This document shows, in pieces, positions 2,262 through 19,382 of a stretch of DNA of 64,000 nucleotides (positions are counted from its first letter, which is position 1; every line of letters starts with the position of its first letter). The DNA lies in NCBI GenBank assembly GCA_963721805.1, contig CAVRJY010000001.1, positions 128,001 through 192,000 on the forward strand, read 5' to 3'. The notes under the pieces are model-generated. The model saw nothing but the letters and a program-made list of their open reading frames with translations. It was not told where the DNA came from and ran no database searches. The translations under genes and the position numbers were made by a program. This DNA comes from Nitrospirota bacterium. Its GTDB lineage: Bacteria; Nitrospirota; Thermodesulfovibrionia; Thermodesulfovibrionales; JdFR-86.

Positions 2262-3389
2262 TCATCTAGTCCCGATACGGTAGATCTTTCCGGATGAATA
2301 ATCAGCAACGTATATCTCCCCGCGTTCGTCAAGCCCGAACGTGCTGATGGCCAGGTGTGACTCCAGGAGCACCGCCGAGCGCCACTCGCCGCCCTCCCGC
2401 CTGAGCCCGCGTATCCGGCCGGAGCAGAAATCCCCGAAGAGGTAGATCCCATCAAGCGCGGGGAAGTCCTTCCCCGTGTATGCATACCCGCCCGTGACCG
2501 AGCAGTCCCCGGCCGAGTGGTCGTATGTCGTCACGGGCATCACGAGCCCTGTGCGGTCGCATGCCGGAGCGCCGAAGCAGCTCGCGCCCTCCATTATGTT
2601 CCAGCCGTAATTCGCCCCGGCAGCGCTTTTGTTCGATGGCTGGTAGTCGATCTCCTCGTATGTGTCCTGACCGACGTCCGCGATATAGAGCGCATCGCGG
2701 TCGAATGAGTACCTCCACGGGTTTCTGAGCCCTATGGCCCAGACCTCCGTGCCGTATGGGTTTCCGGGCGGGATGCCGTAAGGTTTCTTCCCGCCCTCTG
2801 TGTCTATGCGCAGGAGCTTGCCCAGGAGCACGCGCGGGTTCTGGCCGTTTCTGTGCGGGTCGCCTCCAGAGCCCCCATCCCCGATGCCGATATAAAGGTA
2901 TCCGTCCGGGCCGAAGACGATCTGCCCCCCGTTGTGGTTGCGGTATGGCTTGGCCTGGGTGAAGATCACCTCGCCGCTCGCCGGGTCCGCAAGGTTCAGA
3001 TCGCTGGCCGAGACTCTGTATCTAGCCACCACTACCGCGCCGTCCGAGGCGCGCGTATAGTCCACGTAGAAATACCGCTTCGACGCATACGAGGGAGGAA
3101 ACGCCAGCCCGAGCAGGCCCTGCTCAGCCCCCCGCGTCGCGATCAGCCCGGATACGTCCAAGAATGGGATAGGCCGCACCATGCCGTCTTTTATTATGTG
3201 CACCGTGCCCTTGCGCCCGACCACGAACAGCCGCCCGGAACCATCCCGCGCCGACTGTATATCGGTCGGAGAGCTAAGGCCGCTGGCATAGAGCGATATC
3301 TTTATCCCCGGCCAGCCCGCGCCCCACGCAAGCGCTCCGGATGCAAGCACCGCAACGATCGCGACGGCCCAAACGATGACCTTCTTCAT
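2262..3389 (-). CDS. Secreted PQQ-dependent sugar dehydrogenase (GSDH beta-propeller)
   Basis: Signal peptide; EQGLLGLAFPP, NHNGGQIVFGPDGYLYIGIGDGG, GLRNPWR motifs. Confidence 0.9.
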   Translation of the reverse strand: MKKVIVWAVAIVAVLASGALAWGAGWPGIKISLYASGLSSPTDIQSARDGSGRLFVVGRKGTVHIIKDGMVRPIPFLDVSGLIATRGAEQGLLGLAFPPSYASKRYFYVDYTRASDGAVVVARYRVSASDLNLADPASGEVIFTQAKPYRNHNGGQIVFGPDGYLYIGIGDGGSGGDPHRNGQNPRVLLGKLLRIDTEGGKKPYGIPPGNPYGTEVWAIGLRNPWRYSFDRDALYIADVGQDTYEEIDYQPSNKSAAGANYGWNIMEGASCFGAPACDRTGLVMPVTTYDHSAGDCSVTGGYAYTGKDFPALDGIYLFGDFCSGRIRGLRREGGEWRSAVLLESHLAISTFGLDERGEIYVADYSSGKIYRIGTR

Positions 3390-3823: not shown

Positions 3824-4220
3824 ATGATCCGCCTTCGCCGCATAGCCATGACCGATGATGTTTCGCTGGGTGTCCTGATCGGCGAGGCCGGCCTCCCGCT
3901 CGCGCTCACATTAGAGAGGCCCTGGCGCAACAACGCCCCTGAGGTCTCGTGCATACCGCCGGGCAGCTACACGGCCCGCCGCGTGACATCGCCGAAGTTC
4001 GGCGAGACGTTCGAGGTTACAGGCGTTCCGGGCCGCAGCCACATCCTCATGCACAAGGGCAACACCCCGGCCGATACCGAGGGATGCATATTGGTAGGGG
4101 CCCAGTGGGGCACGATAGCGGGTTGCCCGGCGGTGCTTGATGAGCAGCCAGGGCTACGGTGCGTTCATGACAGCGATGAGGGACAAACAGGAGTTTCAGC
4201 TCCTGATCGAAAACCAGTAA
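3824..4220 (+). pseudogene. DUF5675-like phage protein (putative cell-wall peptidase) with apparent +1 frameshift near 4137
   Basis: TLERPW, SCIPPGSY, VPGRSHILMHKGN, TEGCILVG motifs; family-like C-terminus (MSSQGYGAFMTAMRDKQEFQLLIENQ*) lies in the +1 frame ending TAA 4218-4220; as sequenced the ORF runs to 4234. Confidence 0.65.
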
Positions 4221-4253
4221 GGAGATGCATATGAAACAGGCAGGGACGCTCAT

Positions 4254-4562
4254 ATGATGGACGCAGAGACGTTGAGGCACGTGGCCGAGTGGGGCCCGGG
4301 GCTCCTGATCGGCGTGATGATACTGGCCGGGCTTTTCAGGCTCGCAGACCGCGTCGGGATGAGGATGGTCGCGGCCTCCGAGAGGCAGGCCGAGGCGCTT
4401 GCGGCGCAGGCCGAGGCGATGCAGGGCCTGACGACCTCGATCAGGGACTTCGTTACGCGGGACAACTCCGAGCACCGCGAGATGCTCGTGCTTTTGAGGT
4501 TCATCGCGCAGGAGCAGCAGCACTCACGCGAGCAGCAGGAGGAGGAGAAAGTTGAACACTGA
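4254..4562 (+). CDS. Small phage membrane protein (one TM helix plus coiled coil; holin/Mu gp25-like position)
   Basis: Hydrophobic segment GLLIGVMILAGLF followed by Ala/Glu/Gln-rich heptads; position between lysin-like gene and gp26-like gene. Confidence 0.6.
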   Translation: MMDAETLRHVAEWGPGLLIGVMILAGLFRLADRVGMRMVAASERQAEALAAQAEAMQGLTTSIRDFVTRDNSEHREMLVLLRFIAQEQQHSREQQEEEKVEH

Positions 4563-4848
4563 GACCGCACGCAACAGGCGCATCCGCCACGCCCTGCTTC
4601 GGATACTGAAGTCCGAGTACCCCGGGGCGATAGACACCAAGGCACTGAGGTTCGCGCTCGACAACCTCGGCTATCCCATGCCGGGCCGGGTGCTCGGGGC
4701 GCACTTGGCGTACCTCAGCGAGGGCGGCTACGTCCGCGTCGAGCAGAAGGCGGGTTTCGGGTACAGGATCGAGTTTGCGTACCTGACCAAGGAGGGCTGG
4801 GACCTCCTCGACGGCCATATCGGCGAGCGCGGGGTGGACTCCGAATGA
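4552..4848 (+). CDS. Mu gp26-like winged-helix protein
   Basis: RIRHALLRIL...LAYLSEGGYV...LTKEGWDLLDG pattern and synteny before terminase; TTG start after GGAGGAG. Confidence 0.7.
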   Translation: MNTETARNRRIRHALLRILKSEYPGAIDTKALRFALDNLGYPMPGRVLGAHLAYLSEGGYVRVEQKAGFGYRIEFAYLTKEGWDLLDGHIGERGVDSE

Positions 4849-5093
4849 GCCTCCCGAGCGAGGAAAGCATGGTGCGGGCCCTCATGAGGCAAAAACGCGC
4901 TTATGAGCTGCACTTCAAGACCAAGTCGCCCGAGATCGACAACACGGCCAATACCGCGTACGTCGCGCTGATTAAGATGATCGTCGATATCGTGCGCAAA
5001 TCCAACGAGGCCGGCCCTGAAGGCCGCGACCCCGGCGAGGCCCGCCGCAGCGTGGACGAGGTCTTGAGGACCGAGTATGGGATCGAGCGATAA
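4845..5093 (+). CDS. Short (82 aa) protein in terminase small subunit position
   Basis: ATGA-coupled to gp26-like gene and overlaps terL start; helical, ends EVLRTEYGIER like Mu-type small terminase C-termini; no obvious N-terminal HTH. Confidence 0.55.
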   Translation: MSLPSEESMVRALMRQKRAYELHFKTKSPEIDNTANTAYVALIKMIVDIVRKSNEAGPEGRDPGEARRSVDEVLRTEYGIER

Positions 5094-6345
5094 GTTGATA
5101 CTCCTGCCCTACCAGCGCCGATGGGTCAACGACCGCTCCGCGATGAAGATATGGCTCGCCGCGCGCCAGATCGGCAAGTCCTTCGCCGTGGCGATGGAGG
5201 CCGTGGACGAGGCGCGCGCGGAGAAGTGCGACAACCTCATACTCTCGTCTTCCGAGCGGCAGAGCAAGGAGGTCATGAAGAAGGTCTCCTCGCACCTCCG
5301 CGTGCTGAATGTCTTAAGCGCCGACTCGCTCGACGCCAGCCGCGAAAACCGCGAGGAGGTCGAGCTCCTAAACGGCTCGCGCATCATCTCGCTTCCGGCC
5401 TCGCCGGATACGGTGCGCGGGTTTTCAGGCAACGTCTATCTGGACGAGTTCGCTTTTCATCAGGATTCGCGCGAGATATGGCGCGCGATGTACCCGACCG
5501 TGACGCGCGGCTACAAGGTGCGCATCACCTCGACCCCCAATGGCCGCCTCAATATGTTTTATGAGCTGTATAACGCGGATGCGCGGTTTTCGCGCCACCG
5601 CACGAACATACACGACGCCGTGGCCGACGGCCTGTGCGTCGATATTCCGCTTCTAAGAGACGGGATCGGAGACCCCCAGAGCTGGGCGCAGGAGTTCGAG
5701 TGTGAGTTCGTGGACGAGGCCACCGCGCTCATTACGCTCGATGAGATCGCCTCGTGTGAAGGGGACTGCGGGCAGCTAAAAGATACGACAGGTGAGCTAT
5801 ATCTGGGCGTCGATATCGGCCGCAGCCACGACCTTACGGTCATATGGATTTTAGAGCGCGTGGGCGACGTCCTCTGGACGCGCGGGGTGCGCGAGCTGCG
5901 CAATGCCTCATTCAGCTCTCAGCGCGAGACGCTGTTTTCGCTGATCGAATCCCCAGCCGTGAAGCGCTGTTGCATGGACTCCACCGGCATCGGGGCGCAG
6001 TTAAGCGAGGAGGCCCGCGAGCGGTTCGGCACGCGGGTAGAGCCTGTGCAGTTTACGCTCCAAAGCAAGGAGGACCTCGCCGTGACCGCGCGCCGGGCGT
6101 TTGAGGACCGCACCGTGCGCATCCCCCAGGACGCCACGATCCGGCGCGACATACACAGCGTCCGGAGGTATACGACCTCGGCCGGAAACGCCCGGTTCGA
6201 CGCCAGCCGCACGACGGAGCACGCCGACCGCTTCTGGGCGCTGGCCCTCGCGCTTCACGCCGCAAAGTCCCCGGCCTTGACTCAGCCCCAATACGAGCAG
6301 ATAAGCACGCGGCAGGCTGCTATGCACCGTGCTGGCTGCTGGTAA
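5077..6345 (+). CDS. Terminase large subunit (Mu gp28-like)
   Basis: LLPYQ Q motif, ARQIGKS Walker A, VYLDE Walker B, TSTPNG, nuclease motifs LGVDIG, MDSTGIG, HADRFWALALA. Confidence 0.95.
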   Translation: MGSSDKLILLPYQRRWVNDRSAMKIWLAARQIGKSFAVAMEAVDEARAEKCDNLILSSSERQSKEVMKKVSSHLRVLNVLSADSLDASRENREEVELLNGSRIISLPASPDTVRGFSGNVYLDEFAFHQDSREIWRAMYPTVTRGYKVRITSTPNGRLNMFYELYNADARFSRHRTNIHDAVADGLCVDIPLLRDGIGDPQSWAQEFECEFVDEATALITLDEIASCEGDCGQLKDTTGELYLGVDIGRSHDLTVIWILERVGDVLWTRGVRELRNASFSSQRETLFSLIESPAVKRCCMDSTGIGAQLSEEARERFGTRVEPVQFTLQSKEDLAVTARRAFEDRTVRIPQDATIRRDIHSVRRYTTSAGNARFDASRTTEHADRFWALALALHAAKSPALTQPQYEQISTRQAAMHRAGCW

Positions 6346-6424
6346 ATGCCGATGCAAATCATCGCTTCGCTCGATTTGCATCGGGGCTATAAGGCAAATC
6401 ACATCAGGATAAGGAGGTATTAAG

Positions 6425-7645
6425 ATGGCTGTTAAAGATTCATCAGGAAAGGGCCGGTCCGGCCCCCCGCCATTGGGCGGGGTGGTGGTGGCCCCGCATT
6501 TGGGCTGGCCGACGTACCCCTCGTCCGGGCTCACGCCCGAGCGCTTAAGCGCGATATTCCGCGAGGCCGACGCCGGGGACATCTCACGCCAGATCGAGCT
6601 TTACGAGGAGATGGAGGAAAAGGACGCGCATCTTGGCGCGGTGCTCCAGACTCGCAAGCTCGCTGTGGCCGGGCTTCAGTGGGAGGTCACCCCATCAGGC
6701 ACGAGCGAGGATGCGGCTATCTCAGCCGCACTCGTTAAGGACGCGCTTGCGCATGCTGCCGGGTTTGACGAGGCGATCCTCGCTCTAGTCGACGCCGTGG
6801 GCAAGGGTTTCTCTGCGGTCGAGCTTATCTGGCGAGCGGATGCTGGCCGCGTTGCGCTCAATGCGCTTCGGCCGGTAAGCCAGCGGAGTTTTTCCTTTCT
6901 CGCACCCGATGGCCTGCCCTCTGGCGAGCCGCGCCTTTTGACCGAGGCCAACCCGGTTCGCGGCGAGGCGCTCACGCCCTTTAAGTTCGCGGTTCACGCC
7001 AACATGTCCCGCACCTCATGCCCCCAGCGCGCCGGGGTGCTCAGGCCGTGCGCATGGATGTACCTGTTTAAAAATTACACGCTCAAGGACTGGCTGATCT
7101 TCAACGAGCGGTACGCGATGCCGATGCGCATTGGCAAGTTCGGCCCGTCCGCGTCCGAGGCCGACCGCCGCGTGCTCAGAAACGCGGTCTTCAACTTGGG
7201 CGCGGACGCCGCGGCCGTGATAAGCGAGGGCACGGTGATCGAGCTCCTGGAGAGCCCCGGCAAGGGCGGCTCGGCCGACCTCTACCAGAGGCTCGCCGAG
7301 TACTGCGACGCCGCGATCTCGAAGGCCGTCCTGGGCCAGACGCTAACGACCGAACAGACCGGCGGGACGTACGCCACCGCGCGAGTCCACGAGGGCGTGC
7401 GCGAGGACATCACCGCGGCCGACGCCCGCGCGCTCGAGCGCACGATAACGAGCCAGATCATCAGGCCGCTCGTGGAGTTCAACCTCGGCCCCGGCGCGCC
7501 GCTTCCCCGCTTCAGGTTCCTTATGGCGGAGGAAGAAGACCTAAAGACGCTGGCCGAGACCTACTCGACCTTAAGCGCGATGGGGGTCTCGATCCCTGAC
7601 GCCCACATCCGCGAGCGCTTCGGCATACCCGCAGGAGGCAACTAG
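6425..7645 (+). CDS. Portal protein (Mu gp29 / DUF935)
   Basis: GLTPERL, EMEEKDAHL, ERYAMPMRIGK, ISKAVLGQTLTT motifs; RBS TAAGGAGG. Confidence 0.92.
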   Translation: MAVKDSSGKGRSGPPPLGGVVVAPHLGWPTYPSSGLTPERLSAIFREADAGDISRQIELYEEMEEKDAHLGAVLQTRKLAVAGLQWEVTPSGTSEDAAISAALVKDALAHAAGFDEAILALVDAVGKGFSAVELIWRADAGRVALNALRPVSQRSFSFLAPDGLPSGEPRLLTEANPVRGEALTPFKFAVHANMSRTSCPQRAGVLRPCAWMYLFKNYTLKDWLIFNERYAMPMRIGKFGPSASEADRRVLRNAVFNLGADAAAVISEGTVIELLESPGKGGSADLYQRLAEYCDAAISKAVLGQTLTTEQTGGTYATARVHEGVREDITAADARALERTITSQIIRPLVEFNLGPGAPLPRFRFLMAEEEDLKTLAETYSTLSAMGVSIPDAHIRERFGIPAGGN

Positions 7646-7647
7646 AC

Positions 7648-8610
7648 ATGGACGAAACACTGGTAATGCGCTCTGCCGCGATCGAGGGCGCTCCGGCCGA
7701 GATCCAGGTGATCCCGTTTGGCGGCCACGAGACCACGCAGGGCAGCTTCGTGCTCGACGCCGAGGGGATCAGGCAGATCATCTCAGAGTTCGAGGCGAGA
7801 AAAAACGAGATGGTGATCGACTACGAGCACCAGACGCTCGGGGGCTCCGAGGCCCCGGCCGCCGGATGGATCAAGCGGCTTATAGATAAGGGTGCGGACG
7901 GCCTCTGGGCCTCGGTGCAGTGGACCCCGCGCGCGCTTCAGTACCTAAGGGGCCGCGAGTACCGCTACCTCTCGCCGGTGTTCATGAAGCGCATCGCTGA
8001 CGGCCGCGCGGTGCGCCTGATCAACGCCGCGCTCACAAACCAGCCAGCCATAGACGGCATGGTGCCGGTCGTAAACCGCGCCGCCGTGAACTCGCAAAAG
8101 GAAGGAGGAGGAAAGAAGATGGAAAAGATCATGGAAGCCCTCGGCCTTGATAAGGCTGCAGGGGAGGCGGAGGTCATCGCCGCAATAGGGGCGATGAAGT
8201 CACGCATCACGTCCGTGCTCGACTCTCTCGGGGTCGGGACGGACGCGACGGACCCGGAGCTTTCGGGCACCGTGGCCGCGATGAGACAGGCTTACGAGCA
8301 GCTGCCCGCGATAGCCGCGCGCCTGGCCGAGCTCGAGGCCGCGCTTGGCGGCAAAGAGTCCGCCGGGCTCGTCGAGCAGGCGATGGCCGAAGGCAAGCTC
8401 ACGCCCGCGCAGAAGGCGTGGGCCACGGACTATGCGGCCCGCGACACCGAAGGGTTCCGCGTATTCGTGGCCAAGGCCCCGGTGGTCGTCCCGGTGGCCG
8501 ACGCCCCGAGAGCCGGAGCAAGGAAGGTTCAGGCATTGGACGAGACCCAGCAAAGGGTAAACGCTCATCTCGGCATATCGGCCGAGGCATTCGGCCTTTA
8601 CGGCAAATAG
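7648..8610 (+). CDS. Mu-like prohead protease I (with nested scaffold)
   Basis: VIDYEHQT, APAAGWI, EYRYLSPVF, ALTNQPAIDGM motifs. Confidence 0.93.
   Translation: MDETLVMRSAAIEGAPAEIQVIPFGGHETTQGSFVLDAEGIRQIISEFEARKNEMVIDYEHQTLGGSEAPAAGWIKRLIDKGADGLWASVQWTPRALQYLRGREYRYLSPVFMKRIADGRAVRLINAALTNQPAIDGMVPVVNRAAVNSQKEGGGKKMEKIMEALGLDKAAGEAEVIAAIGAMKSRITSVLDSLGVGTDATDPELSGTVAAMRQAYEQLPAIAARLAELEAALGGKESAGLVEQAMAEGKLTPAQKAWATDYAARDTEGFRVFVAKAPVVVPVADAPRAGARKVQALDETQQRVNAHLGISAEAFGLYGK
8119..8610 (+). CDS. Scaffolding protein (Mu gpZ-like), internal in-frame start in protease gene
   Basis: Strong internal RBS AAGGAGGAGG (8102-8111) before in-frame ATG 8119; helical product with GKLTPAQKAWA; same nested arrangement is known for Mu I/Z. 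Confidence 0.7.
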   Translation: MEKIMEALGLDKAAGEAEVIAAIGAMKSRITSVLDSLGVGTDATDPELSGTVAAMRQAYEQLPAIAARLAELEAALGGKESAGLVEQAMAEGKLTPAQKAWATDYAARDTEGFRVFVAKAPVVVPVADAPRAGARKVQALDETQQRVNAHLGISAEAFGLYGK

Positions 8611-8622
8611 GAGGATCGGCAC

Positions 8623-9030
8623 ATGGCACTCACTTCAGACAGGAACACGCCTCGCCGTGACGGCGAGCTCGTAACTCTCCCGGTCGCGGCCGCAAAACTC
8701 ATCTACGCCGGGTCGCTGGTGGCCAGGGATTCAAGCGGCAACGCCACCCCGGGTGCGGCCGCAACCACGCTTTTGGGAGCCGGCCGCGCCGAGGCGCGTG
8801 CGGATAACTCCGGCGGCTCGGCCGGGGATATCACGGTCGACGTCCGCAAGGGCGTCTTCAGGTTCGGCAACTCCGCCTCCGCGGACGCGATCACGCGCGC
8901 GGACATCGGCGCCAGCTGCTACATCGCCGACGACCAGACGGTCGCCAAGACCAGCGGATCGAGCACGCGCTCGGTAGCCGGAACAGTCTTCGACGTGGAC
9001 TCAGACGGCGTCTGGGTCAAGTTCGAGTAA
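8623..9030 (+). CDS. Capsid decoration/cement-like protein
   Basis: MALTSDRNTPRRDG...ADIGASCYIADDQTV...DGVWV pattern; sits between protease and major capsid. Confidence 0.7.
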   Translation: MALTSDRNTPRRDGELVTLPVAAAKLIYAGSLVARDSSGNATPGAAATTLLGAGRAEARADNSGGSAGDITVDVRKGVFRFGNSASADAITRADIGASCYIADDQTVAKTSGSSTRSVAGTVFDVDSDGVWVKFE

Positions 9031-9043
9031 GGAAAGGACAGAT

Positions 9044-9922
9044 ATGATAATCAACCAGTCAGCGCTTCAGGCCCTGTACAAGGGCTTCAGGACGATATTC
9101 AACGAGTCGTTCGACGCGGTAAAGCCGCAGTACGAGGGCGTGGCGATGGTCGTGCCCTCGACCGTGCGCGAGGAGACCTACGCATGGCTCGGCGCGTTCC
9201 CGTCGATGAGGGAATGGATCGGCGAGCGGCAGGTCAGGAACCTCGACCTGCAGAGCTACAGCATCCGCAACAAGGACTGGGAGGTCACGATCGAGGTCGA
9301 CCGCAACGACCTCGAGGACGACTCGGTAGGCATCTACCGCCCGATCATAGCCGAGCTCGGCCGCTCGGCCGCGATGCACCCCGACGCGCTCGTATTCGGG
9401 TTAATGGGCACCGGGTTTTCCACCGCGTGCTACGACGGGCAGTACTTCTTCGACTCCGCCCACCCGGTAGGCTCCGCCACGGTGAGCAACACCGGCGGGG
9501 GCTCGGGCTCGGCCTGGTATCTGCTCGATACGACGCGCTCTCTGAAGCCTTTCATCTTCCAGTCGAGGCGCGACGTGGAGTTCGTCTCGAAGGACCGGCC
9601 GGACGACGAGCAGGTCTTCATGCGCAAGAAGTACGTCTATGGCGTCGACAGGCGCGACAACGCCGGGTTCGGGCTCTGGCAGCTGGCGTACGGATCGAAG
9701 CAGACGCTGGACGCGGCGAGCTACTCGGCCGCACGCGCCGCGATGATGGCGTACACGGACAGCGAGGGCAAGCCGCTCGGGATCACGCCCAGCGTGCTCG
9801 TCGTGCCGCCTTCTTTGGAGGGCGCTGCGCGCGCGATCGTGACGGCCGAGCGCGACGCCTCGGGCGAGACGAACCCCTGGTTCAATACCGCCGGGCTCCT
9901 CGTGAGCCCGTGGCTTGGGTAG
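9044..9922 (+). CDS. Mu-like major head subunit gpT
   Basis: YAWLGAFPSMREWIGER, DGQYFFDSAHPV, WYLLDTTRSLKPFIFQ, GFGLWQLAYGS motifs. Confidence 0.95.
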   Translation: MIINQSALQALYKGFRTIFNESFDAVKPQYEGVAMVVPSTVREETYAWLGAFPSMREWIGERQVRNLDLQSYSIRNKDWEVTIEVDRNDLEDDSVGIYRPIIAELGRSAAMHPDALVFGLMGTGFSTACYDGQYFFDSAHPVGSATVSNTGGGSGSAWYLLDTTRSLKPFIFQSRRDVEFVSKDRPDDEQVFMRKKYVYGVDRRDNAGFGLWQLAYGSKQTLDAASYSAARAAMMAYTDSEGKPLGITPSVLVVPPSLEGAARAIVTAERDASGETNPWFNTAGLLVSPWLG

Positions 9923-9928
9923 ACCCCG

Positions 9929-10360
9929 ATGCCCTACAGCACCCTTGATGAGATCGTAAAGCTCCTGCCTGAGGCAACGCTTATCGAGCTTACGGACGAC
10001 ACGGGCGCCGGTACGGTCGACGGGGCGGTCGTCGCCGAGGCCATAGCCCAGGCCGACGCGGAGATCGACTCTTACTGTGGGGGGCGCTACGGCGTCCCCC
10101 TCAGCCCCGTCCCCGAGATCGCAAAAAAGCTCTCGGCGGACATCGCGCTCTATCACCTGTATTCGCGCCGCGTGGCCCAGATGCCGGAGGCCCGCAAGGA
10201 CCGCTACAAAGACGCGGTGCGCCTGCTTGAGGGCATCGCCAAAGGCGCGGTCACGCTGGGCGCCGATACGCCCGCTTCATCGGGGCAGCCGGGCACGGCC
10301 GAGACGAACAGGCCGGACGACGAAAACACATTCACCCGCGACTCGATGCTCGGGTTCTAA
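9929..10360 (+). CDS. Head-tail connector (Mu gp36 / DUF1320)
   Basis: MPYST, ADAEIDSYCGGRY, DIALYHLY, RYKDAVRLLEGIAKG. Confidence 0.9.
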   Translation: MPYSTLDEIVKLLPEATLIELTDDTGAGTVDGAVVAEAIAQADAEIDSYCGGRYGVPLSPVPEIAKKLSADIALYHLYSRRVAQMPEARKDRYKDAVRLLEGIAKGAVTLGADTPASSGQPGTAETNRPDDENTFTRDSMLGF

Positions 10361-10419
10361 GAAAGAAGGAGACGCTCACAATGCCTGTAAACGACGCATA
10401 TAAGGCCGGGGCATAGCGC

Positions 10420-12924
10420 ATGTCCATCTCGATAGCCTTCCCGCCCGTCTCGGGCTGGGCCCTTTCGGATCCGGCGAAGCTGCTGCTGGCGGGCAACTCA
10501 AGCCGCATGCAGCTCGCCCTGCTGGACGACTTCGCGAACGGCTCGATGGGCGGGCAGTGGAGCGTGGCGACATCCGGGTACTGGGGCCTCTCGACCACCG
10601 GCTCCATCACGGAAGCAGGCGGCGTGCTCGGCATCTCGCACCCCGGCTCCGGCTCGCAGCAGACGCGCGCGTGGGTGACGCCGAACATACTGTCGGGCGA
10701 CTTCGACATCCAGATAGACGTCGCCTCCTTCACTGGCGGCGGCGGTGACGCAGGGATGAAGTTCGGCTTCTACATCGACGCCGGCAATTACTTTTACCTC
10801 AACGCCTACGGCCCGAACTCGGCCTCTATTGCGTACTTCAGCACCATACGCCACGGAGGCGCCAACACGACCGCCAGCTCGGCGTTCGCCGGAGCCGCAT
10901 CGGGCAGGCTCAGGATAGTGCGCGCCGGGACTGCGGTTACCGTTTACTATTACTCAGGCGGATGGGTGCAGCAGAACTCCTATGCCGGCTGCTCGACGTC
11001 CTCCGGCGCGGTGACGCTCAACGGCTGGTGGACATCGGGGGCGTCATGGAACGCCGCGCTTGACAACTTCACGATAAACAGCGGGGCATACGGGGGCGTC
11101 ATGTTCTGCCCGTCCGATTCCCCCACCGCCGAGAGCCCGTGGATAGCGTTGCCGTGCAAGACGCTCGATGCGAGCGCGGCGGTAGCGGCGTTTGAGAACA
11201 CCCAGGGCGGCTCGGGAAACATAAAGTACCAGTACGCGCTTAATAACGGCTCGTACAACGGCTCGTGGCTTACGAAGTCCGGCCTCAACGGCTCGCTTGC
11301 CTCCGCCTCGATCACGGACCCGGCAAACAGCATCAGGCTCAAGGCGCAGCTCAACAGCGACGGCACTCAGATGGCGGATTTCGCGCCCGGATGCATCACA
11401 GCGGGCGATCTCGATTATCCGGCCTCAGGCGACGTAAAAAACGGCGTGGCGTATGCGCTCGGGCAGTACACCGGGACTTACTCGGGCGGAGGGAGCTGCG
11501 ACTACCCCGCGGTTGAGGACGTGCGCGAGGGCGTAAGTTATAACGGCGGCCTGAGCACAGGGACACTCGACCTGCCTTCGATATCCGACGTGCGCCACGC
11601 GACGGCGTTTGACCACAATACAAAGACCGGCACGGCCTATATCCCGGCCGCGGCGGACGTGCGCTCCGGGACGAACGTGGACGCCACGGCCGGGACTCTC
11701 AACCTCCCGGCAGTGGCCGACGTGCGTGCGGCTACGGCCTTCGACGGAGGCACGAAGACCGGCCTGCTCGATCTGCCATCGATATCCGACGTGCGCCACG
11801 CAACGGCGTTTGACCACAACACGAAGACCGGCACGGCCTATATCCCGGCCGCAGGCGACACGCGCTTCGGCGTCGCCGTCGATAGCGGAAGCGGCAGTTG
11901 CAGGGTGCCGTCAAAGGCCGATGTCCGTGCAGGCGTGGCAGTGGACGTCAGCGATACCGGCCAGATCGACCTCCCGGCCGCATCGGATGTACGAAGCGGC
12001 GTGGCCTATGACCACAACGCCCAGACCGGCACGTACGAAGCACCGGCCTGCGATTACCCGCAGGCCGCGGATGTACGCGACGGAGTCAGTTATGACTTCG
12101 GGGCGCTGACCGGCACGCTGGCAGCCGAGACTTGCGACTACCCGCAGGCCGCGGATGTCCGCGACGGGGTCAGTTATGACCATGGCGGACTTGTCGGCAC
12201 GCTGGCAGCCGGGACTTGCGACTACCCGCAGGCCGCGGACGTACGCGACGGGGTCAGTTATGACCATGGCGGACTTGTCGGCACGCTGGCAGCCGGGGCT
12301 TGCGACTACCCGCAGGCTGCGGACGTACGCGACGGGGTCAGTTATGACTTCGGGGCGCTGACCGGCACGCTGGCAGCCGGGACTTGCGACTACCCGCAGG
12401 CCGCGGATGTCCGCGACGGGGTAAGTTATGACTTCGGGGCGCTGACCGGCACGGCGGCGTTGCGGGGCTCTGCCCCGGCGCAGCTCCAGAGTTTCCGGGA
12501 CATAGAGGCCGCGATCATCTCGAAGCTCAAAAGCGATGTCCCGGCCCTGCGCACGGTCGAGTCCTGGGCCGGTCAGATCGCGGACCGGATAGATTCGCTT
12601 ACGGTGCCGCTTCCGGCCGCGTTCGTTTCATACGGGGGCTCGGGCTTCAGCCCCATAGACGGCCCCTCGCACCGCGAGCAGCCCGCCTTTACGGTGCTCG
12701 TCGCGGCTCGCAGCATGCGCGGCGACGGCTCCGAGCGCACATCGGCAAACGGGGCGTACGGGCTCGTGCAATCCGTGCTCTCGGCGCTCGCCAACGAGGA
12801 CTTCGGATATAGCGGCCTTGAGCGGCTCGCGCCCTCGCGCGTGGCGCTCATAGCGAGCGAGGGCGGCGCGGCTGTATACGGAGTTACGTTTCAGACCGCG
12901 TTTGACACGCAATACAACTGGTAA
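10420..12924 (+). CDS. 834-aa fusion: beta-rich lectin-like domain + 14 fibre-like repeats + C-terminal Mu gp37/DUF1834-like domain
   Basis: Gly/Ser/aromatic-rich N-terminus; repeats P-x3-DVR-x-G-x2-YD-x4-TGT; last ~150 aa (DIEAAIISKLK...VESWAGQ...PAAFVSYGG...GAYGLV) resemble gp37 and occupy its syntenic slot. Confidence 0.7.
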   Translation: MSISIAFPPVSGWALSDPAKLLLAGNSSRMQLALLDDFANGSMGGQWSVATSGYWGLSTTGSITEAGGVLGISHPGSGSQQTRAWVTPNILSGDFDIQIDVASFTGGGGDAGMKFGFYIDAGNYFYLNAYGPNSASIAYFSTIRHGGANTTASSAFAGAASGRLRIVRAGTAVTVYYYSGGWVQQNSYAGCSTSSGAVTLNGWWTSGASWNAALDNFTINSGAYGGVMFCPSDSPTAESPWIALPCKTLDASAAVAAFENTQGGSGNIKYQYALNNGSYNGSWLTKSGLNGSLASASITDPANSIRLKAQLNSDGTQMADFAPGCITAGDLDYPASGDVKNGVAYALGQYTGTYSGGGSCDYPAVEDVREGVSYNGGLSTGTLDLPSISDVRHATAFDHNTKTGTAYIPAAADVRSGTNVDATAGTLNLPAVADVRAATAFDGGTKTGLLDLPSISDVRHATAFDHNTKTGTAYIPAAGDTRFGVAVDSGSGSCRVPSKADVRAGVAVDVSDTGQIDLPAASDVRSGVAYDHNAQTGTYEAPACDYPQAADVRDGVSYDFGALTGTLAAETCDYPQAADVRDGVSYDHGGLVGTLAAGTCDYPQAADVRDGVSYDHGGLVGTLAAGACDYPQAADVRDGVSYDFGALTGTLAAGTCDYPQAADVRDGVSYDFGALTGTAALRGSAPAQLQSFRDIEAAIISKLKSDVPALRTVESWAGQIADRIDSLTVPLPAAFVSYGGSGFSPIDGPSHREQPAFTVLVAARSMRGDGSERTSANGAYGLVQSVLSALANEDFGYSGLERLAPSRVALIASEGGAAVYGVTFQTAFDTQYNW
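12049..12453 (+). repeat. Five tandem 84-bp coding repeats (CDYPQAADVRDGVSYD...)
   Basis: Units start at 12049, 12133, 12217, 12301, 12385; near-identical at nucleotide level. Confidence 0.95.
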
Positions 12925-12940
12925 CGAGGAGAGACAAGAA

Positions 12941-13984
12941 ATGGGCATAAGCGCATCAGGGACCGAGCTTCGGGCGGCGGCCGCGAGGGCCGCGATATGG
13001 GGCACGGCGGTTCAGTGCGGCGCGGCGGACGGGGTGCTCGTCCTTCCGTCGGAGATCAAGAAGACCCGCGAGGCCCTCGCGGAGGACTCGCTCGGCACGC
13101 TGTTTTCGAATTCGTCGGACGCAGGTGCGGTAAAGGTCGAGGGCGAGCTCAAGGCCTACCTGCGCTACGACGGGCTGGACCTCCTGCTGGCGCTCGCGAT
13201 GGGCGCAACCGGAGGGGCTCCGGTGCGGCAGGGGACGAGCGCGGCCTACGGCCAGACGCTTAAGTTAAACGGCTCGCTCGACGGCCTGTTTGCCACGCTC
13301 GCGATCAACAACGGCGTGAACGTCGACGAGTTTGCGTCGGTGAAGCTCAGCGGGTTTCAGATCAAGGGCGAGGCCGGAAAGCCTGTCGAGGCCACGTTCA
13401 GCCTGATCGCGAACGACCGCACGACCGGCTCGACCGTCAACACCACAGCGACGTTCAGCGCGGTCACGGATTTTGAGACATCAAACCGCACCCTGTTCAG
13501 CCAGGCCGTGTTCCGTTGCAACGCCCGCTTTGGCGCGGCGCTCGCCGATACCGACAGGATATACCCCTCGGCCTTCACGCTTAAGTTCGTCAGAAAGCTC
13601 CTTGGCGTGCGCACGCTGGGCTCGGGAGCGGATACGGTCGACGAGCCTTCAAACGACGGCCTGCCGGACTGCACGCTATCGCTGACGTTCCCGCGCTACA
13701 CCGGGGCCACGCACTTCGCGGACTGGGACGCGGCCGCGCCCAAGAAGCTCGACCTCGCGTTTACGGGCGCGGTGATCGAGGGCTCATACCGGCGCGCGCT
13801 GAGGTTTTCGTTCCCGAACCTCGCGTACAAGGGCGTCGAGCTCCCGATCAGGCGCGGCCTGCTCGAGCACCCGGTCGAATTTATATGCCTCGGCACGGAG
13901 CTGGCCTCCTCCGGGATGGACGGGATCATGGAGCCCTTCGGGCTTGAGCTCGTAAACCGCCAAAGCGCGGACGTGCTCGGATAG
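12941..13984 (+). CDS. Tail tube (major tail) protein, non-contractile type
   Basis: ATG 12941 after GAGGAG; beta-rich 347-aa protein after gp37 slot and before chaperones; no sheath gene in cluster. Confidence 0.7.
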   Translation: MGISASGTELRAAAARAAIWGTAVQCGAADGVLVLPSEIKKTREALAEDSLGTLFSNSSDAGAVKVEGELKAYLRYDGLDLLLALAMGATGGAPVRQGTSAAYGQTLKLNGSLDGLFATLAINNGVNVDEFASVKLSGFQIKGEAGKPVEATFSLIANDRTTGSTVNTTATFSAVTDFETSNRTLFSQAVFRCNARFGAALADTDRIYPSAFTLKFVRKLLGVRTLGSGADTVDEPSNDGLPDCTLSLTFPRYTGATHFADWDAAAPKKLDLAFTGAVIEGSYRRALRFSFPNLAYKGVELPIRRGLLEHPVEFICLGTELASSGMDGIMEPFGLELVNRQSADVLG

Positions 13985-13988
13985 GGCG

Positions 13989-14405
13989 ATGGATATCGAG
14001 GCCCTGGAGAGCGACGACTATGCGGTGTGGGTAAGGTTCATGGACGCCGAGGTGCTCGTGCGCCACGTCCCGGCCGGCGAGCTCCTGTCTATCCGGGAGC
14101 GCAGCCTGAGGCGGGCGTGGGACATCTCGAGCGGGGGCCGGCCGGCCGAGGGCATCGATGCGGCCGAGGCTGCCAGGCTGCTGGGCCGGGCGGCGGTGCG
14201 CGGCTGGCGCGGCCTGAGCATGCGCGGCGAGGACTACCCCTACTCGCCCGAGCGGTGCGACTTCCTTATGGCGCGCTGGGCCGAGTTCGGGCGGTTCGTA
14301 AACGAGGCCGCGACGAGCCTTGCGCGCCTCGCTGAAGCACAGCGGAGGGACGAGTCAAAAAACTCCTCTCTCACATCCGGGCCCGGCTCGACTTCCCGGG
14401 TGTGA
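13989..14405 (+). CDS. Tail assembly chaperone (lambda G-like)
   Basis: VRGWRGL...YPYSPE...ESKN motif; follows tube gene; contains A AAA AAC slippery site. Confidence 0.8.
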   Translation: MDIEALESDDYAVWVRFMDAEVLVRHVPAGELLSIRERSLRRAWDISSGGRPAEGIDAAEAARLLGRAAVRGWRGLSMRGEDYPYSPERCDFLMARWAEFGRFVNEAATSLARLAEAQRRDESKNSSLTSGPGSTSRV

Positions 14406-14644
14406 GCTGCGCTTCATGCCGGGAGATAGAGGCATTGGATCAGGTCAGGCCGGACTGCGAGAGCGGCGGCTGCCCGATCCCTCGGGCAACGGGGCGCGGC
14501 ATGCGGGCGGTCGCCCTCAGGTCGATGATAAGGCGGCTTAAGCGGATAGTCCCTGCGGGCGAGGTGCTCCGCCTGATGGGCGCGACGGCGCGTGACCTCG
14601 AGTTGCTGGCCCTGATCGAGGACGAGATAGGAGGCAGGGGATGA
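14357..14644 (+). CDS. Frameshift extension of tail chaperone (lambda GT-like), Cys-rich
   Basis: -1 slip at A AAA AAC (14357-14363) enters open frame KKLLSHIRARLDFPGVSCASCRE...DCESGGCP, identical to ORF 14402-14644. Confidence 0.8.
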   Translation, partial: KKLLSHIRARLDFPGVSCASCREIEALDQVRPDCESGGCPIPRATGRGMRAVALRSMIRRLKRIVPAGEVLRLMGATARDLELLALIEDEIGGRG

Positions 14645-15048
14645 TAAACATCGAAAGCGACATGGACAAGCTCGCGGCCGCGATCGGCACCGGCGCGTTG
14701 GGCGCGATAGTCGAGAGTGTGACCGAAGAGGCAAAGGCGCTCGCCCCTGGCCGCAGCGGCACCCTTAGGGACTCGATAGAGGGATTCATAACCGGCGCTG
14801 GGTCGGGCTCGATAGACGCGGCTGCGCCCTATGCCTCGTTCGTGCACGACGGCACAGGGCTTTACGGGCCGTCCGGTGCGGCATATGCCGTAAGCGCGCG
14901 CATTAAAAAGGCCCTGTGCTGGCCGGGTGCGAGCCACCCCGTGCGCACGGTGACCGTGCGCGGCATCGAGGGCAGGGAGTTCATCACCCGGGCGCTCGAG
15001 GGCCCGGCACCGGATCAGGCAGTGCAAGGGCTGATCGACAGACTATAG
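14641..15048 (+). CDS. HK97 gp10-like neck/tail completion protein
   Basis: APGRSGTLRDSI, YASFVHDGTG, KKALCW, GIEGREFITRAL motifs. Confidence 0.8.
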   Translation: MINIESDMDKLAAAIGTGALGAIVESVTEEAKALAPGRSGTLRDSIEGFITGAGSGSIDAAAPYASFVHDGTGLYGPSGAAYAVSARIKKALCWPGASHPVRTVTVRGIEGREFITRALEGPAPDQAVQGLIDRL

Positions 15049-15061
15049 AGGAGGCAACCAG

Positions 15062-15595
15062 ATGGCTGAAGTGGTTATAAACATCAAGGCCGAGGACGCC
15101 GCGACCCCGGTGATCGAGGCGATCTCGGCGACGCTCGACGCGCTCGGCGCCGGGCTCGCGGCGATGGACAGCGGGCTTAGCAAGACCCTCACGCTCGACG
15201 TCTCGGGCGCGCTTTACGGTGCGGCCGAGGTAGCCTCGGCCATCGGCGCGATACCGGACGTGACCGAGAAGAGCGTGGTCATCGAGTACCAGACGATGGC
15301 CTCTCCGGTGAGGCCGTTTACCGAGGGCATCGCGTACATAAAGGACAAGATGGACTCGCTCCCGACCGAGGGCTCATACACCGTGAAGTATGCGACCGAT
15401 GGCTCACCGGCGCAGGGGCAACCGAATGTGCCGGCGCAGCCGGGGCCGGTCACGTTCTCGCCGGTGATCAACGTCAACGCCCAGGCGGGCGGGGCTGCCG
15501 CGGATGCCGCCTCGTTGGCGCGCTCGCTCGATGAGGAGCTTGCGCGGATGTGGCGGACCAACCGCTCGGAACTTAGGAGGGCAGCCACCCTATGA
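15062..15595 (+). CDS. Very short tape measure-like protein (177 aa)
   Basis: TMP-type N-terminus (VVINIKAEDAATPVI) and C-terminus (VTFSPVINVNA...LARSLDEELARM); syntenic slot; strong RBS. Confidence 0.7.
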   Translation: MAEVVINIKAEDAATPVIEAISATLDALGAGLAAMDSGLSKTLTLDVSGALYGAAEVASAIGAIPDVTEKSVVIEYQTMASPVRPFTEGIAYIKDKMDSLPTEGSYTVKYATDGSPAQGQPNVPAQPGPVTFSPVINVNAQAGGAAADAASLARSLDEELARMWRTNRSELRRAATL

Positions 15596-16332
15596 GCGCG
15601 ATAATCACGGCATGGCAAAACCTGCTCGAAAGCTCAACCGTTACGCTTACGGCCGGCGCGGAGGACCCGGACTACCCGCTATACCGCCTCTGCGACCGCA
15701 ATACCGGGCGCGCGTTTCGCTCAAGCGCAGCCGGAACGCTCGAGATCTCGATAGACCAGGGCGCATCGGGCGCGATGGCCGCAGACCGCCTCCTGATCCC
15801 CTCCGGCCACAACCTTGGCGGTATGACGCTCGACCTGCTCCACTCAGGCGACGGTGTCGCATATATCTCCGCCACGCCGCAGTGGACCGGCGCTGACGGA
15901 GTTATCGAGATGTCATGGGCGCCGCTCACCGCGCGGTACTGGAAGTTCAGGGTCACAGCGCCATCGGTGGCGCCCTCGCTGGGCGAACTGTTCCTGAGCA
16001 GCTCGTACGAGTGGGAGCGCCAGCCAGCGCGGCCCTCCGGCGCGATGGACACGGAGTTTAACGCGCTAAGCGATACGACCTCCTCGGGCGAGGACAGATT
16101 CCTGGTGATGGGCCAGCCCAAGAGGCGGCGCACCTACCGGGTGCCGCGCTGCGGCGCGGCGATGCGCGATGAGATCGAGGCGCTCTATGGCGCATGGGCC
16201 GGGGCATATCCGTTTTGGATGCGGGACCACGAGGGCTCCTGGATATTCGGGCGGATCGTCTCGCCGCCCCAGATAGCGGAGCAGGGGCCCGGAGCATGGG
16301 GCTTCTCGCTCGACTTCAGGGAGGTCTTATGA
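15592..16332 (+). CDS. Distal tail (Dit)-like protein
   Basis: ATGA-coupled to TMP-like gene; beta-rich N-domain (RYWKFRV) and C-terminal GAYPFW...FSLDFREV. Confidence 0.6.
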   Translation: MSAIITAWQNLLESSTVTLTAGAEDPDYPLYRLCDRNTGRAFRSSAAGTLEISIDQGASGAMAADRLLIPSGHNLGGMTLDLLHSGDGVAYISATPQWTGADGVIEMSWAPLTARYWKFRVTAPSVAPSLGELFLSSSYEWERQPARPSGAMDTEFNALSDTTSSGEDRFLVMGQPKRRRTYRVPRCGAAMRDEIEALYGAWAGAYPFWMRDHEGSWIFGRIVSPPQIAEQGPGAWGFSLDFREVL

Positions 16333-16757
16333 ACGTGCTCTCCCGTGTCCGCCCGGTCTATCTCGTCAAGATTACCCTTCAGGGCTCCGGCCAGACGCTG
16401 TACCTCTCGGACCGGAACGTGACTGTGGGCGGGCAGGAGTACGAGGACTATATCTCCGCGGTCACGACCCCGGCCGAGGAGGCCAGGCGGCCAACCAGCG
16501 AATCTTTAAACGCGCCGCTTTCGATCGAGTTTCGAAACGAGCCCTGGCGCGGGTTCAGCCGGCTGATCGAGGCCGGGGCCGAGCACCCCTTTGAGGGCGG
16601 CCGCTGCACGCTCAGCGAGGCGTACATCGACGACGCGGGGATGTCGGGCGAACCCGTGGCGCTCTTTACCGGCACGCTCGACGCCCCCGCTGAGATCGAC
16701 TTGCGGGGTTTTAGTTGCGCGGTCTCCGCGCTCGATTATGCCGCTGACAACAGATAA
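16329..16757 (+). CDS. Baseplate hub N-terminal-like protein
   Basis: ATG 16329 coupled to previous stop; PVYLVKI...TLYLSDR...LFTG pattern. Confidence 0.55.
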   Translation: MNVLSRVRPVYLVKITLQGSGQTLYLSDRNVTVGGQEYEDYISAVTTPAEEARRPTSESLNAPLSIEFRNEPWRGFSRLIEAGAEHPFEGGRCTLSEAYIDDAGMSGEPVALFTGTLDAPAEIDLRGFSCAVSALDYAADNR

Positions 16758-16797
16758 GGGATAGGGGCCACAGGCCCCCAAGGAGGAGCAGGAAAAA

Positions 16798-17250
16798 ATG
16801 GGCATAGCATTTGACCACGTGCAGTACGTATCGGACGTCCGGCTGATGCTTGGCGAGTCGACCTCGACGATCACGCTGGCCGCCCCGTTTACGGACAAGG
16901 AGTTCTACCGCTCGGAGATCGACCCCGGATTCGGCGGGGAGATAAGCTTTATCGACGCGGACCTGTATTTCGACCACTACTCGAGCCTCACGCAGAACGT
17001 CACATGGCGCTGGCAGATCAGGGGCAAGGGCCAGGCCGCCTGGACCGACCTCAATACGCCAAAGACCGAGAGCTGGGCCAGCCAGGCCCAGTCGCGCCTC
17101 CGCGTGATCGTCGAGGCCTCCGCCCTTGACGTCAATACGGCCGTGCCGTTTGAGATCCGCATGCTCGCGACCGCGGCCACGGCGGCCACGGTCTATATCG
17201 TGATCGGGACGTATACGCCCTCCATCCGCGTGCTGGGTACGAGCGCATGA
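16798..17250 (+). CDS. Hypothetical beta-rich virion protein
   Basis: RBS AGGAGGAG/AGGA; host-like codon usage; ATGA-coupled to next gene. Confidence 0.65.
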   Translation: MGIAFDHVQYVSDVRLMLGESTSTITLAAPFTDKEFYRSEIDPGFGGEISFIDADLYFDHYSSLTQNVTWRWQIRGKGQAAWTDLNTPKTESWASQAQSRLRVIVEASALDVNTAVPFEIRMLATAATAATVYIVIGTYTPSIRVLGTSA

Positions 17251-19382
17251 TGCCCGCACCGCTTTCGCGCTCGCTGTATCCCGCGCTCGATCCGGCATCG
17301 GCCGGTGAATACCCGCCGGTCGGGTACGGGAGTGTCGACGGGGTCCCTGCGCCATGCATCGTATCGGGCGCGGCGATGCGGCTCGCCTCCGGGATCGGCG
17401 CGGCCGAGACCTCACTTGAGGTCGATGACGCCCCGGCGCTCCCCTCGCCGCCGTTTACGGTGCAACTGGCAGGGGAGCGGATGCTCGTGGCTTCGGTTAC
17501 GGGCAATACACTAGGCGGGCTCACCCGCGGGGCGGATGGCACGACGGCCTCGGCGCACCCGGCGGGGCGCAGGGTGTTTGAGCTGCGGCCGGAGTACGTA
17601 TATCTGATAAGCCCCGAGCCGATAGCCGCGATACGCGGCGTCGTGGTCGACGGCGTGGCGCAGCAGTCGGGCTTTAGCGCATACACGGGCCGCCCGGGCG
17701 ACGAGCACCCGGACTGGCCGGGCATGGCGGTGGTCGCGTTCGAGGCACAGCTCAGCGCGTCGGCCCAGCGCAATATCTCTGCCGCATCGACCTGCTCGGT
17801 GGACGCAACGATGCTTGAGGCCTCGCACCGCGAGCTCATGGCCTCTGGTGGCGCGGCCCCGGTTTTGATATCAGGGAAACGCGCTCGCCCGGCGTGGGTC
17901 GCATTTACAGGCTCGGGCCCGCTCACGTCTCAGGCGTACTGCGCGTCCGTCCATAATACCGGCGCGTCCGATGCGGTCGTGCGCGCGTTAGTCAAGGTCA
18001 GCGCGACTGACGAGGTACTCGCGACAGAGTGCGTGCTTGTCCAGGCATCCGCGGCGGTGGCGGTCGGGCTCTCGCACGACGGCGGGCCGTGGGAGACCTG
18101 CTTCATGCTGTTCGCTGGCGCTGGCGCATCCACACTGGAGATTAGCGGGATCAAGAAGACCGTTACGGCCGTAAACCCGGCCGAGGGCGACAAGAGCTCG
18201 TCGTATCTGCCTGCGCCTTCTATGCTGTCGTACCGCGGCCTCGGGATCGAACGCACCGCGACGCTCAAGCCCAAGGGCAAGCGGCTGGCATGGGCCGCGT
18301 ACAGCGCGGACTCATTCGGGCCGGTTCTCTGGCAGACCCACCGCGCCGCTGTAGCTAACACCGGCGCGACGGACTCCGTAGTGCGGCTGATCGCATCGGC
18401 CCCAACTGGCGAATGCGCGGCCATGGCCGACTTTACCGTGAGAGCCGGGGATGCCACCACGCTTGAACTCACGCACCCGGGCGGGGGCTGGGACACGATG
18501 AGCAGGGTTGCGGTGCAAAGCGGGATGCTTAGAGTAGATGCGCTCTCAAAGGAGGTCAGGTACGTCACCGGGACCGACGGCCCCTCGGCGGGGTATAGCT
18601 CCACAGCGCGCGCTGTCATAGGCGATGAGGTCACGGTCGACGCCGACTGGTGCTGCGACGAGACTGGCGCGGTGATCGAACGGCCCGACAAAATTATGCG
18701 CCACTTTTTGGTCGAGCGCATGGGGTTTGCGGATACGGACATCGACAGCGCCTCCTTCGCCGCGGCCGACGCGGCGTACGCGGGCTACGTAAGCGGGGGC
18801 TACCGCTTCGGGTTCGTGATAAACGATAAGGTCACGCCGTCCGGGTTCGTGCGCTCACTGGCCGCACAGTGCAGGTCTGTGCTCAGATATGCGCGCGGGC
18901 TCTGGCGGCTCGACGCGGTGCCATCCGCGGCCCCTGCGCCGGTGCGCACGATATCGGCGGGCGAGCTTGCCGGAGAGGGCGCGATGTTCCGGTTTAAGCG
19001 CGTGCCTCTTGAGGATATGGGCAACAGCCTTCGTGCATATTACGGCGCTGTCTACTCAAAGGGCGGCGGCTGGTCGTCCATAGCCTCGGTCAATGACGCG
19101 GGCTCGATAGAAAGGCTCGGTCTAATCACGAGAGAGTTCAGGTTCCCGGCGATACGCGATAAGTCCACCGCAGAGGACGTGCTCGGCCTCATGCTCCTTG
19201 AGCGTGCGGCCTCGCTCCTGATCGTCAATTTCACGGTATTCTACGAACACTTCGACCTGAATGTCGGCGATACGATCTCGATAGACAACGAGCTTTATAA
19301 CGGCGCGCTGTTCTTCATCGAACGCATCGAAAGGCCGGACTCATTCAGGGCGAAAATTACAGCTCGCCAGTGGTGGGGATGA
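17247..19382 (+). CDS. Large baseplate hub/tail tip protein
   Basis: 711 aa; PVGYGSV early motif, IERPDKIMRHFL...IDSASF, FDLNVGDTISI C-terminus typical of phage tail tip proteins. Confidence 0.7.
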   Translation: MMPAPLSRSLYPALDPASAGEYPPVGYGSVDGVPAPCIVSGAAMRLASGIGAAETSLEVDDAPALPSPPFTVQLAGERMLVASVTGNTLGGLTRGADGTTASAHPAGRRVFELRPEYVYLISPEPIAAIRGVVVDGVAQQSGFSAYTGRPGDEHPDWPGMAVVAFEAQLSASAQRNISAASTCSVDATMLEASHRELMASGGAAPVLISGKRARPAWVAFTGSGPLTSQAYCASVHNTGASDAVVRALVKVSATDEVLATECVLVQASAAVAVGLSHDGGPWETCFMLFAGAGASTLEISGIKKTVTAVNPAEGDKSSSYLPAPSMLSYRGLGIERTATLKPKGKRLAWAAYSADSFGPVLWQTHRAAVANTGATDSVVRLIASAPTGECAAMADFTVRAGDATTLELTHPGGGWDTMSRVAVQSGMLRVDALSKEVRYVTGTDGPSAGYSSTARAVIGDEVTVDADWCCDETGAVIERPDKIMRHFLVERMGFADTDIDSASFAAADAAYAGYVSGGYRFGFVINDKVTPSGFVRSLAAQCRSVLRYARGLWRLDAVPSAAPAPVRTISAGELAGEGAMFRFKRVPLEDMGNSLRAYYGAVYSKGGGWSSIASVNDAGSIERLGLITREFRFPAIRDKSTAEDVLGLMLLERAASLLIVNFTVFYEHFDLNVGDTISIDNELYNGALFFIERIERPDSFRAKITARQWWG

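Follow-up and report, generated by a model that had tools for sequence, protein, structure and literature searches.

The window, the whole 64,000-nt stretch of DNA analysed here, carries on its forward strand a 15.6-kb cluster of Mu-derived genes (3824..19382, +), delineated by Pfam and PHROG matches, which contains lysis-like, packaging, head and tail genes only and has cellular genes on both sides, the immediate flanks being a glucose/sorbosone dehydrogenase gene (GSDH; 2262..3389, -) and an RNase G gene (19618..21123, -). The first gene of the cluster (3824..4234, +) encodes a DUF5675 protein, a type found in the Mu-like prophage L015 as well, and in most related clusters a Peptidase_M15_4 gene stands in this place. 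The following gene (4254..4562, +) encodes a 102-aa protein, assigned to the Mu gp25 (releasin) position by position and size only, with a hydrophobic N-terminal stretch, a charged helix behind it and no match to phrog_736, the PHROG of Mu gp25. Next comes a gene for a 98-aa winged-helix homologue of Mu gp26 (4552..4848, +; phrog_436, E 2.9e-12). Mu gp26 belongs to the same PHROG (E 7e-43), and since this family is common to both proteins the label "gp26-like" used in the initial annotation holds, the link running through phrog_436 only, as BLASTP returned no alignment between the 98-aa protein and Mu gp26. An 82-aa gene with an ATG start (4845..5093, +), encoding a candidate small terminase (TerS) without an HTH, then precedes the gene for a 422-aa large terminase (TerL; 5077..6345, +) with a T4-type ATPase and an RNaseH-like nuclease (Terminase_6N, 3e-19; Terminase_6C, 5e-21), which also matches phrog_5909 and phrog_2. 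A Mu-type portal gene (6425..7645, +; Portal_Mu, 6e-111) is followed by genes for Mu protease I, a phrog_1731 protein, the Mu gpT capsid protein, gp36, a gp37 fusion, the tail tube and a Phage-tail_3 protein. The gp37 fusion (10420..12924, +) is an 834-aa protein in which a long repetitive N-terminal part is joined to a Mu gp37/tail-terminator domain at residues 694-830, the gp37-like gene of relatives encoding about 150 aa. All structural genes in the window are open.

In the Mu record the corresponding genes run in the order gp25 (releasin, one transmembrane segment), gp26 (winged HTH), gp27 (small terminase, 191 aa), gp28 (large terminase) and gp29 (portal), which is the order seen in the window from the gp25-position gene through the gp26 homologue, the 82-aa gene and TerL to the portal. 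The 82-aa gene therefore occupies the slot of Mu gp27 (gene D; PF11985/phrog_426), after a gp26 homologue and before TerL and portal. The large terminases of the two systems differ, that of the window being T4-type and 422 aa long and Mu gp28 having 551 aa. As the initial annotation stated, the 82-aa frame is the sole gene between the gp26 homologue and terL and is coupled at both ends, by overlaps of 4 and 17 nt: its ATG and the TGA of the 98-aa gene share an ATGA, and the TerL ATG at 5077, behind a GAGGA, lies 17 nt before its own stop at 5093. The open frame 5' of 4845 contains no in-frame ATG, GTG or TTG, so the 82-aa protein cannot be longer and conceals no extended version.

The 82-aa frame is a real gene and not a chance ORF, because it matches 34 representative clusters, lies at the same position in 14 other genomes from two families and shows pN far below pS. 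The clusters were obtained at E<=1e-3 in an exhaustive search of a 1.84-billion-protein library, 30 of them representing proteins of 74-121 aa and two proteins of 151 aa, with two long repetitive proteins set aside; a word-indexed protein search with the same query found only two close relatives. Over the last 75 codons of the short forms, as the 82-aa protein and its counterparts of similar length are called here, pN/pS is 0.2-0.35, and dN/dS is 0.15-0.27 where synonymous sites are unsaturated, values that indicate purifying selection on these genes. The earlier description as a clean gene and not a broken fragment is thus borne out by its occurrence in the same slot of 15 genomes together with these ratios, and so is its helical character, since an AlphaFold2 model built on 30 homologues contains three helices (residues 6-26, 33-55 and 63-78; mean pLDDT 74), arranged as a hairpin (6-55) and a C-terminal helix (63-78) that ends in an E-Y-G-I motif. 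No Pfam or PHROG family was assigned to the 82-aa protein, the sole row being a major-tail PHROG at E 0.063, and a profile search of PDB sequences gave nothing below E 0.07.

In some related loci the slot is filled by a gene of 151-170 aa, and the 82-aa protein aligns with the last ~80 residues of the product. The block formed by the 102-aa gene, the gp26 homologue, the short-form gene and TerL recurs in the whole genomes of relatives, and the 102-aa gene and the two genes after it are kept together in all related loci. A wider search recovered 105 relatives, nearly all of 136-176 aa, and precomputed Pfam domains were lacking throughout. A profile combining long and short forms matches the 82-aa gene with E 7e-27 at positions 57-136 of 137, and phmmer from the 82-aa protein reached two 151-aa proteins (P0030 and P0031) at residues 67/73-147/151. 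The long form L020 (170 aa), modelled with AlphaFold2, has three short helices at residues 8-50 with pLDDT above 90, followed by a linker helix, a hairpin at 74-119 and a C-terminal part; in this model the additional N-terminal ~68 residues of the long forms appear as a confidently predicted three-helix HTH. By alignment, the 82-aa protein is homologous to the last ~80 residues of this 136-176-aa family and lacks its HTH. The view put forward in the initial annotation, that the DNA-recognition domain is missing, is therefore upheld: long relatives in the same slot carry an N-terminal HTH that the 82-aa protein does not, and the protein matches only the C-terminal part of its relatives in intact Mu-like prophages. 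No separate ORF matching the N-terminal part of the profile was found in any short-form locus, and no split N-terminal piece for the 82-aa gene was found in its locus or in the window's genome. The 104-aa protein P0005 retains only the first helix of the N-terminal domain and looks like the product of a different deletion of the same domain.

Whether this family consists of small terminases was considered from several directions. Weak matches to PHROG TerS families fall on the HTH region of the long forms, phrog_2414 being hit in 5 of 13 proteins (E 0.004-0.028) and phrog_6299 in one of the 13 scanned (E 5e-4). Among 60 long forms searched against Pfam, PF11985 was matched weakly by six (best E 2.2e-4) and PF10668 by two, and the 82-aa protein gave no match at the curated cut-off of PF11985. 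A language-model search with a long form placed DUF1804, Terminase_5 and Phage_Mu_Gp27 nearest (scores 0.91-0.97), the ten best matches carrying a family all belonging to one family or clan; DUF1804 and Terminase_5 (gpP-like) are TerS families of Mu-like and P2-like phages, and this proximity is a lead, although neither appeared for any of the 60 long forms among the 25 most-matched Pfam families. Alignment by hhalign to eight Mu gp27 relatives reached a probability of 1% for the long-form alignment, with only the HTH recognition helix aligned (51-67 with 53-69), and 0.3% for the short-form alignment, and comparison with Mu gp27 singly was not significant. Mu gp27 and the long relatives thus have an HTH at about the same residues, whereas Mu gp27 (191 aa) and the 82-aa protein show no significant sequence relation by hhalign. 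Since PF11985 was detected in a single genome among 151 from the order, these elements use something other than the Mu gp27 family proper. Fold searches with the long form (PDB, BFVD and a wide VIA search) returned generic helical hairpins and 14-3-3-like bundles only, and prediction of a complex between TerL and the 82-aa protein gave a score of 0.01 (mark, 0.32), which speaks neither for nor against an interaction.

A further line of evidence comes from the C-terminus. Of the 20 genes beside a T4-type TerL, 19 have a C-terminal [ED][YF]G motif, the one without it being that of L045, where TerL is matched as a weak fragment. The motif is found in none of the seven genes beside a phrog_38 TerL, which have a different C-terminus in common. 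This distribution fits a C-terminal segment that would contact TerL, by analogy with helix 3 of RcGTA gp1. It also bears on the proposal that neither the 82-aa protein nor the long forms are small terminases, and that they act as some other TerL-linked factor, for example an HTH regulator. Such a role would accord with the lack of any significant match to curated TerS families and with nine long forms that stand alone without TerL, an arrangement that would suit a regulator. However, the family is encoded ahead of TerLs of two unrelated types and differs at its C-terminus accordingly, no locus has a rival small-terminase candidate in the space between gp26 homologue and TerL, and the weak TerS matches fall repeatedly on the HTH region; we consider this proposal very unlikely. 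On sequence grounds the family is best described as TerS-like by position and architecture and not as a member of a curated family, and the description of the 82-aa protein as a small terminase without a DNA-recognition domain appears well supported. The interpretation in the initial annotation accordingly stands as far as a truncated TerS architecture is concerned, and falls short as far as membership of a curated TerS family is concerned, in view of the weak matches and the 1% from hhalign.

Across 317 genomes of the order, matches to the family were found in 26, all in four families (f1, 9/10 genomes; f4, 9/12; f3, 5/22; f2, 2/54). The matches comprise 15 short forms, confined to f1 and f4, and some 22 long forms; short forms within a family are kin, so these counts overstate independence. 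Eight short-form loci could be read over ~8 kb or more upstream (L009, L010, L014, L016, L017, L034+L051, L035+L052 and L036), and in seven of them an M15 peptidase gene and then cellular genes lie upstream, L035 having cellular genes only, with no M15 peptidase found. The same picture holds over the shorter span available for the window (3.8 kb), L011, L012, L013, L025 and L007. GemA and MuB-like genes were absent from the 8-9 short-form loci with ~8 kb or more of upstream DNA and from the 3.8 kb in the window, and Gam was seen beside a short form once (L034). GemA and Mu-transpos_C were absent from the window's whole genome, in searches whose GemA positive control was recovered in 5/5 cases, and that genome has a single TerS-family match. 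Upstream of some short-form loci there is a response regulator gene accompanied by one of LuxR type, or an S24 repressor accompanied by a Mor gene. In four f4 genomes (L010, L014, L016 and L036) a LuxR/GerE-type regulator gene adjoins the M15 peptidase gene at the cluster head, with a single-domain response regulator gene there too in L010 and L014. A module of a Mor-family activator, a Cro-like HTH gene and a divergent S24/HTH repressor is located in the window's genome at G000:C1:321.4-322.9 kb (L057:2957-4337), outside the window, at a distance of ~174 kb from the cluster. L011, L034 and L038 have a module of this kind immediately upstream of their clusters, so control of the window's operon may be encoded far away from it. 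The pairing of an S24 repressor with Mor suggests DNA damage as an inducing signal.

The long forms occur in a wider range of settings. Five lie in Mu-like prophages (L015, L020, L021, L037 and L045) with a MuB-like ATPase, Gam, GemA and Mor upstream, three of these having a repressor and a 546-610-aa ORF further upstream. Four others have no early genes within the DNA read, L038 and L039 showing a repressor and Mor only and L046 and L047 cellular genes directly upstream. Nine copies stand alone among cellular genes with no TerL adjoining, namely L018:9892-10308, L019:9887-10297, L023:9935-10351, L022:8622-9140 and L024:9920-10375 (all on the minus strand) and L040, L041, L042 and L050. These stand-alone copies are mostly found in genomes that have a short-form cluster (three in G001, three in G004, others in G003 and G010), the window's genome having none; seven of the nine keep the C-terminal motif of the T4-type-TerL kind, and those in G004 have a common ~70-nt stretch 170-240 nt upstream.

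An equally short orthologue in an intact phage, which would have spoken against the initial annotation, was sought and not found: none of the five prophages with early genes has a short form, tblastn against 50,697 phage records returned no match to short or long forms, and a scan of IMG/VR with six close rows gave 31 pattern matches, none of them confirmed. Every short form seen is thus in a cluster without transposition genes, whereas the reverse is not true: L038, L039, L046 and L047 keep the long form, so loss of the HTH is not required once transposition genes are gone. The link between HTH loss and domestication consequently holds in one direction, from short form to absence of early genes, and fails in the other.

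HTH loss may have been neutral, a decay that set in once there was no pac site left. In another reading the cluster is the remnant of a decaying Mu-like prophage, makes no working particle and carries a TerS truncation that is neutral wreckage left after the left end and pac site were lost. The flanks vary among f1 genomes, as expected of separate prophage decays, and some clusters that lack early genes have kept the long form, both of which agree with decay. A search of sequencing runs listed two DNA runs, each matching in part, and no RNA run. Yet the short forms are under purifying selection, the clean coupled frame is retained in 15 genomes of two families, the window's structural genes are all open, and no short locus contains a separate ORF for the N-terminal profile part, so that a mere remnant is unlikely. 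Maintenance of a core-reduced small terminase in a cluster of head and tail genes remains our preferred reading.

The relationships of the large terminases indicate at least two losses of the HTH. In a tree of 18 TerL sequences, which excludes L009 and L045 because their TerL is partial, L007 because it lacks one and every phrog_38 locus because its TerL is of a different kind, the short/long label needs three changes, at least two of them forced by well-supported branches. The short form L034 nests among the long forms L037, L038 and L039, and it is 61% identical over 75 residues to the C-terminal part of the long form of L037. The short form L013 is sister to the long form L044 of the same genome, with support of 100/99. 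L044 itself (L044:330-4583, G003:C125) is a small element that encodes a protein with a replication protein O domain and a tyrosine integrase, together with a TerS of the long form and a TerL of T4 type. This TerL is the closest relative of the TerL in the short-form cluster of the same genome, and there is no portal gene after it. The element resembles a satellite-type island and could borrow the particles of that cluster.

The closest known parallel is RcGTA. The parts of Sherlock et al. (2019; PMC6854486) considered here describe RcGTA gp1 (rcc01682) as a small terminase of 107 aa with three helices, which begins at the coiled coil without an HTH, needs helix 3 to bind TerL and is needed for DNA-filled particles and gene transfer; its authors propose that the missing domain abolishes sequence specificity, and GTA small terminases of 92-125 aa are predicted there. 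The annotation's comparison, in which the small terminase of RcGTA is shortened and this is tied to non-specific packaging, agrees with these parts of the article, as does a Mu gp27 of 191 aa with its estimate that Mu-type small terminases are roughly twice as long as the 82-aa protein. Judged against the same description, the genes of RcGTA gp1 and of the 82-aa protein both lie directly upstream of terL in head-tail-only clusters, and both proteins are almost wholly helical, with three helices, a start at the hairpin without an HTH and a conserved C-terminal helix. Short, helical, HTH-less and encoded upstream of terL, the 82-aa protein agrees with every sequence-level feature in that account of gp1 and is shorter still (82 against 107 aa), the likeness being one of description.

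The setting of the two proteins differs in other respects. A Mu portal, protease and gpT capsid mark the window's cluster as Mu-derived, and its relatives bear the label Thermodesulfovibrionales/Nitrospirae, whereas RcGTA belongs to Alphaproteobacteria; unlike in RcGTA, the full-length type survives here in related prophages and loss occurred more than once. To our knowledge, RcGTA is the only experimental case for the idea that a small terminase without a DNA-reading domain leads to packaging of any DNA, and we know of no full-length ancestor of its small terminase. In a GTA, random pieces of host DNA fill the particles, and the complete set of GTA genes is too large for one particle. The cluster at 3824..19382 has the composition by which such elements are recognised, a structural cluster without replication, transposition or integration genes. 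Its capsid protein has the normal Mu gpT length, so the head may hold more than the 15.6-kb cluster, which would be unlike RcGTA.

Taken in this context, the 82-aa protein is, on balance, probably the core-reduced small terminase of a Mu-derived cluster, without pac recognition and serving headful packaging of any DNA. The core would consist of the helical hairpin and the C-terminal helix, the hairpin presumably mediating oligomerisation and the C-terminal helix contacting TerL; in known small terminases the hairpin is the oligomer-forming part. A protein without the HTH would still assemble with TerL and switch it on, and the pac site would no longer be picked out. Packaging would consequently initiate on any DNA available and continue headful by headful. 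Loss of pac recognition and random headful packaging, as put forward in the initial annotation, are a reasonable inference.

Packaging might still be site-specific if DNA recognition were supplied by another protein, most plausibly the gp26-like one, with the 82-aa protein acting only as a TerL adaptor. A gp26 homologue adjoins the gene in every locus with a T4-type or phrog_38 TerL except L044, in the window it overlaps the start of the 82-aa gene, Mu gp26 has no assigned role in the Mu record, and the homologue, a winged-helix protein, could bind DNA. But the homologue is equally present beside the HTH-bearing long forms L015, L020, L021, L037 and L045 and is therefore not a replacement that arose with the truncation, which makes this arrangement distinctly unlikely. 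We continue to favour a small terminase that has given up pac recognition.

Among titles and the opening parts of abstracts in the literature on gene transfer agents, searched with "Mu-like" or "Nitrospir", no such element was found. What is new here is a Mu-derived lineage in another phylum, with a full-length form surviving in related prophages and repeated loss of the HTH. The same architecture as that of RcGTA in an unrelated lineage offers a comparative test of the HTH-loss idea, and supplies matched long and short proteins that can be assayed for DNA binding and packaging. Domesticated particle clusters can be sought with a simple marker, the combination of a short gene without an HTH in the TerS slot and the absence of early genes. 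More tentatively, and with doubt prevailing, it is conceivable that in Thermodesulfovibrionales Mu-like phages have been domesticated more than once into head-tail-only particle clusters, with deletion of the TerS HTH as a repeated step. As a still bolder extension, the stand-alone long forms may mark packaging start sites or belong to satellites that borrow the particles. If such domestication is real, this lineage would add a further origin of gene transfer agents, separate from those already known, and would supply a natural series from full prophage through long-TerS cluster to short-TerS cluster in which one could test the GTA-type terminase idea.
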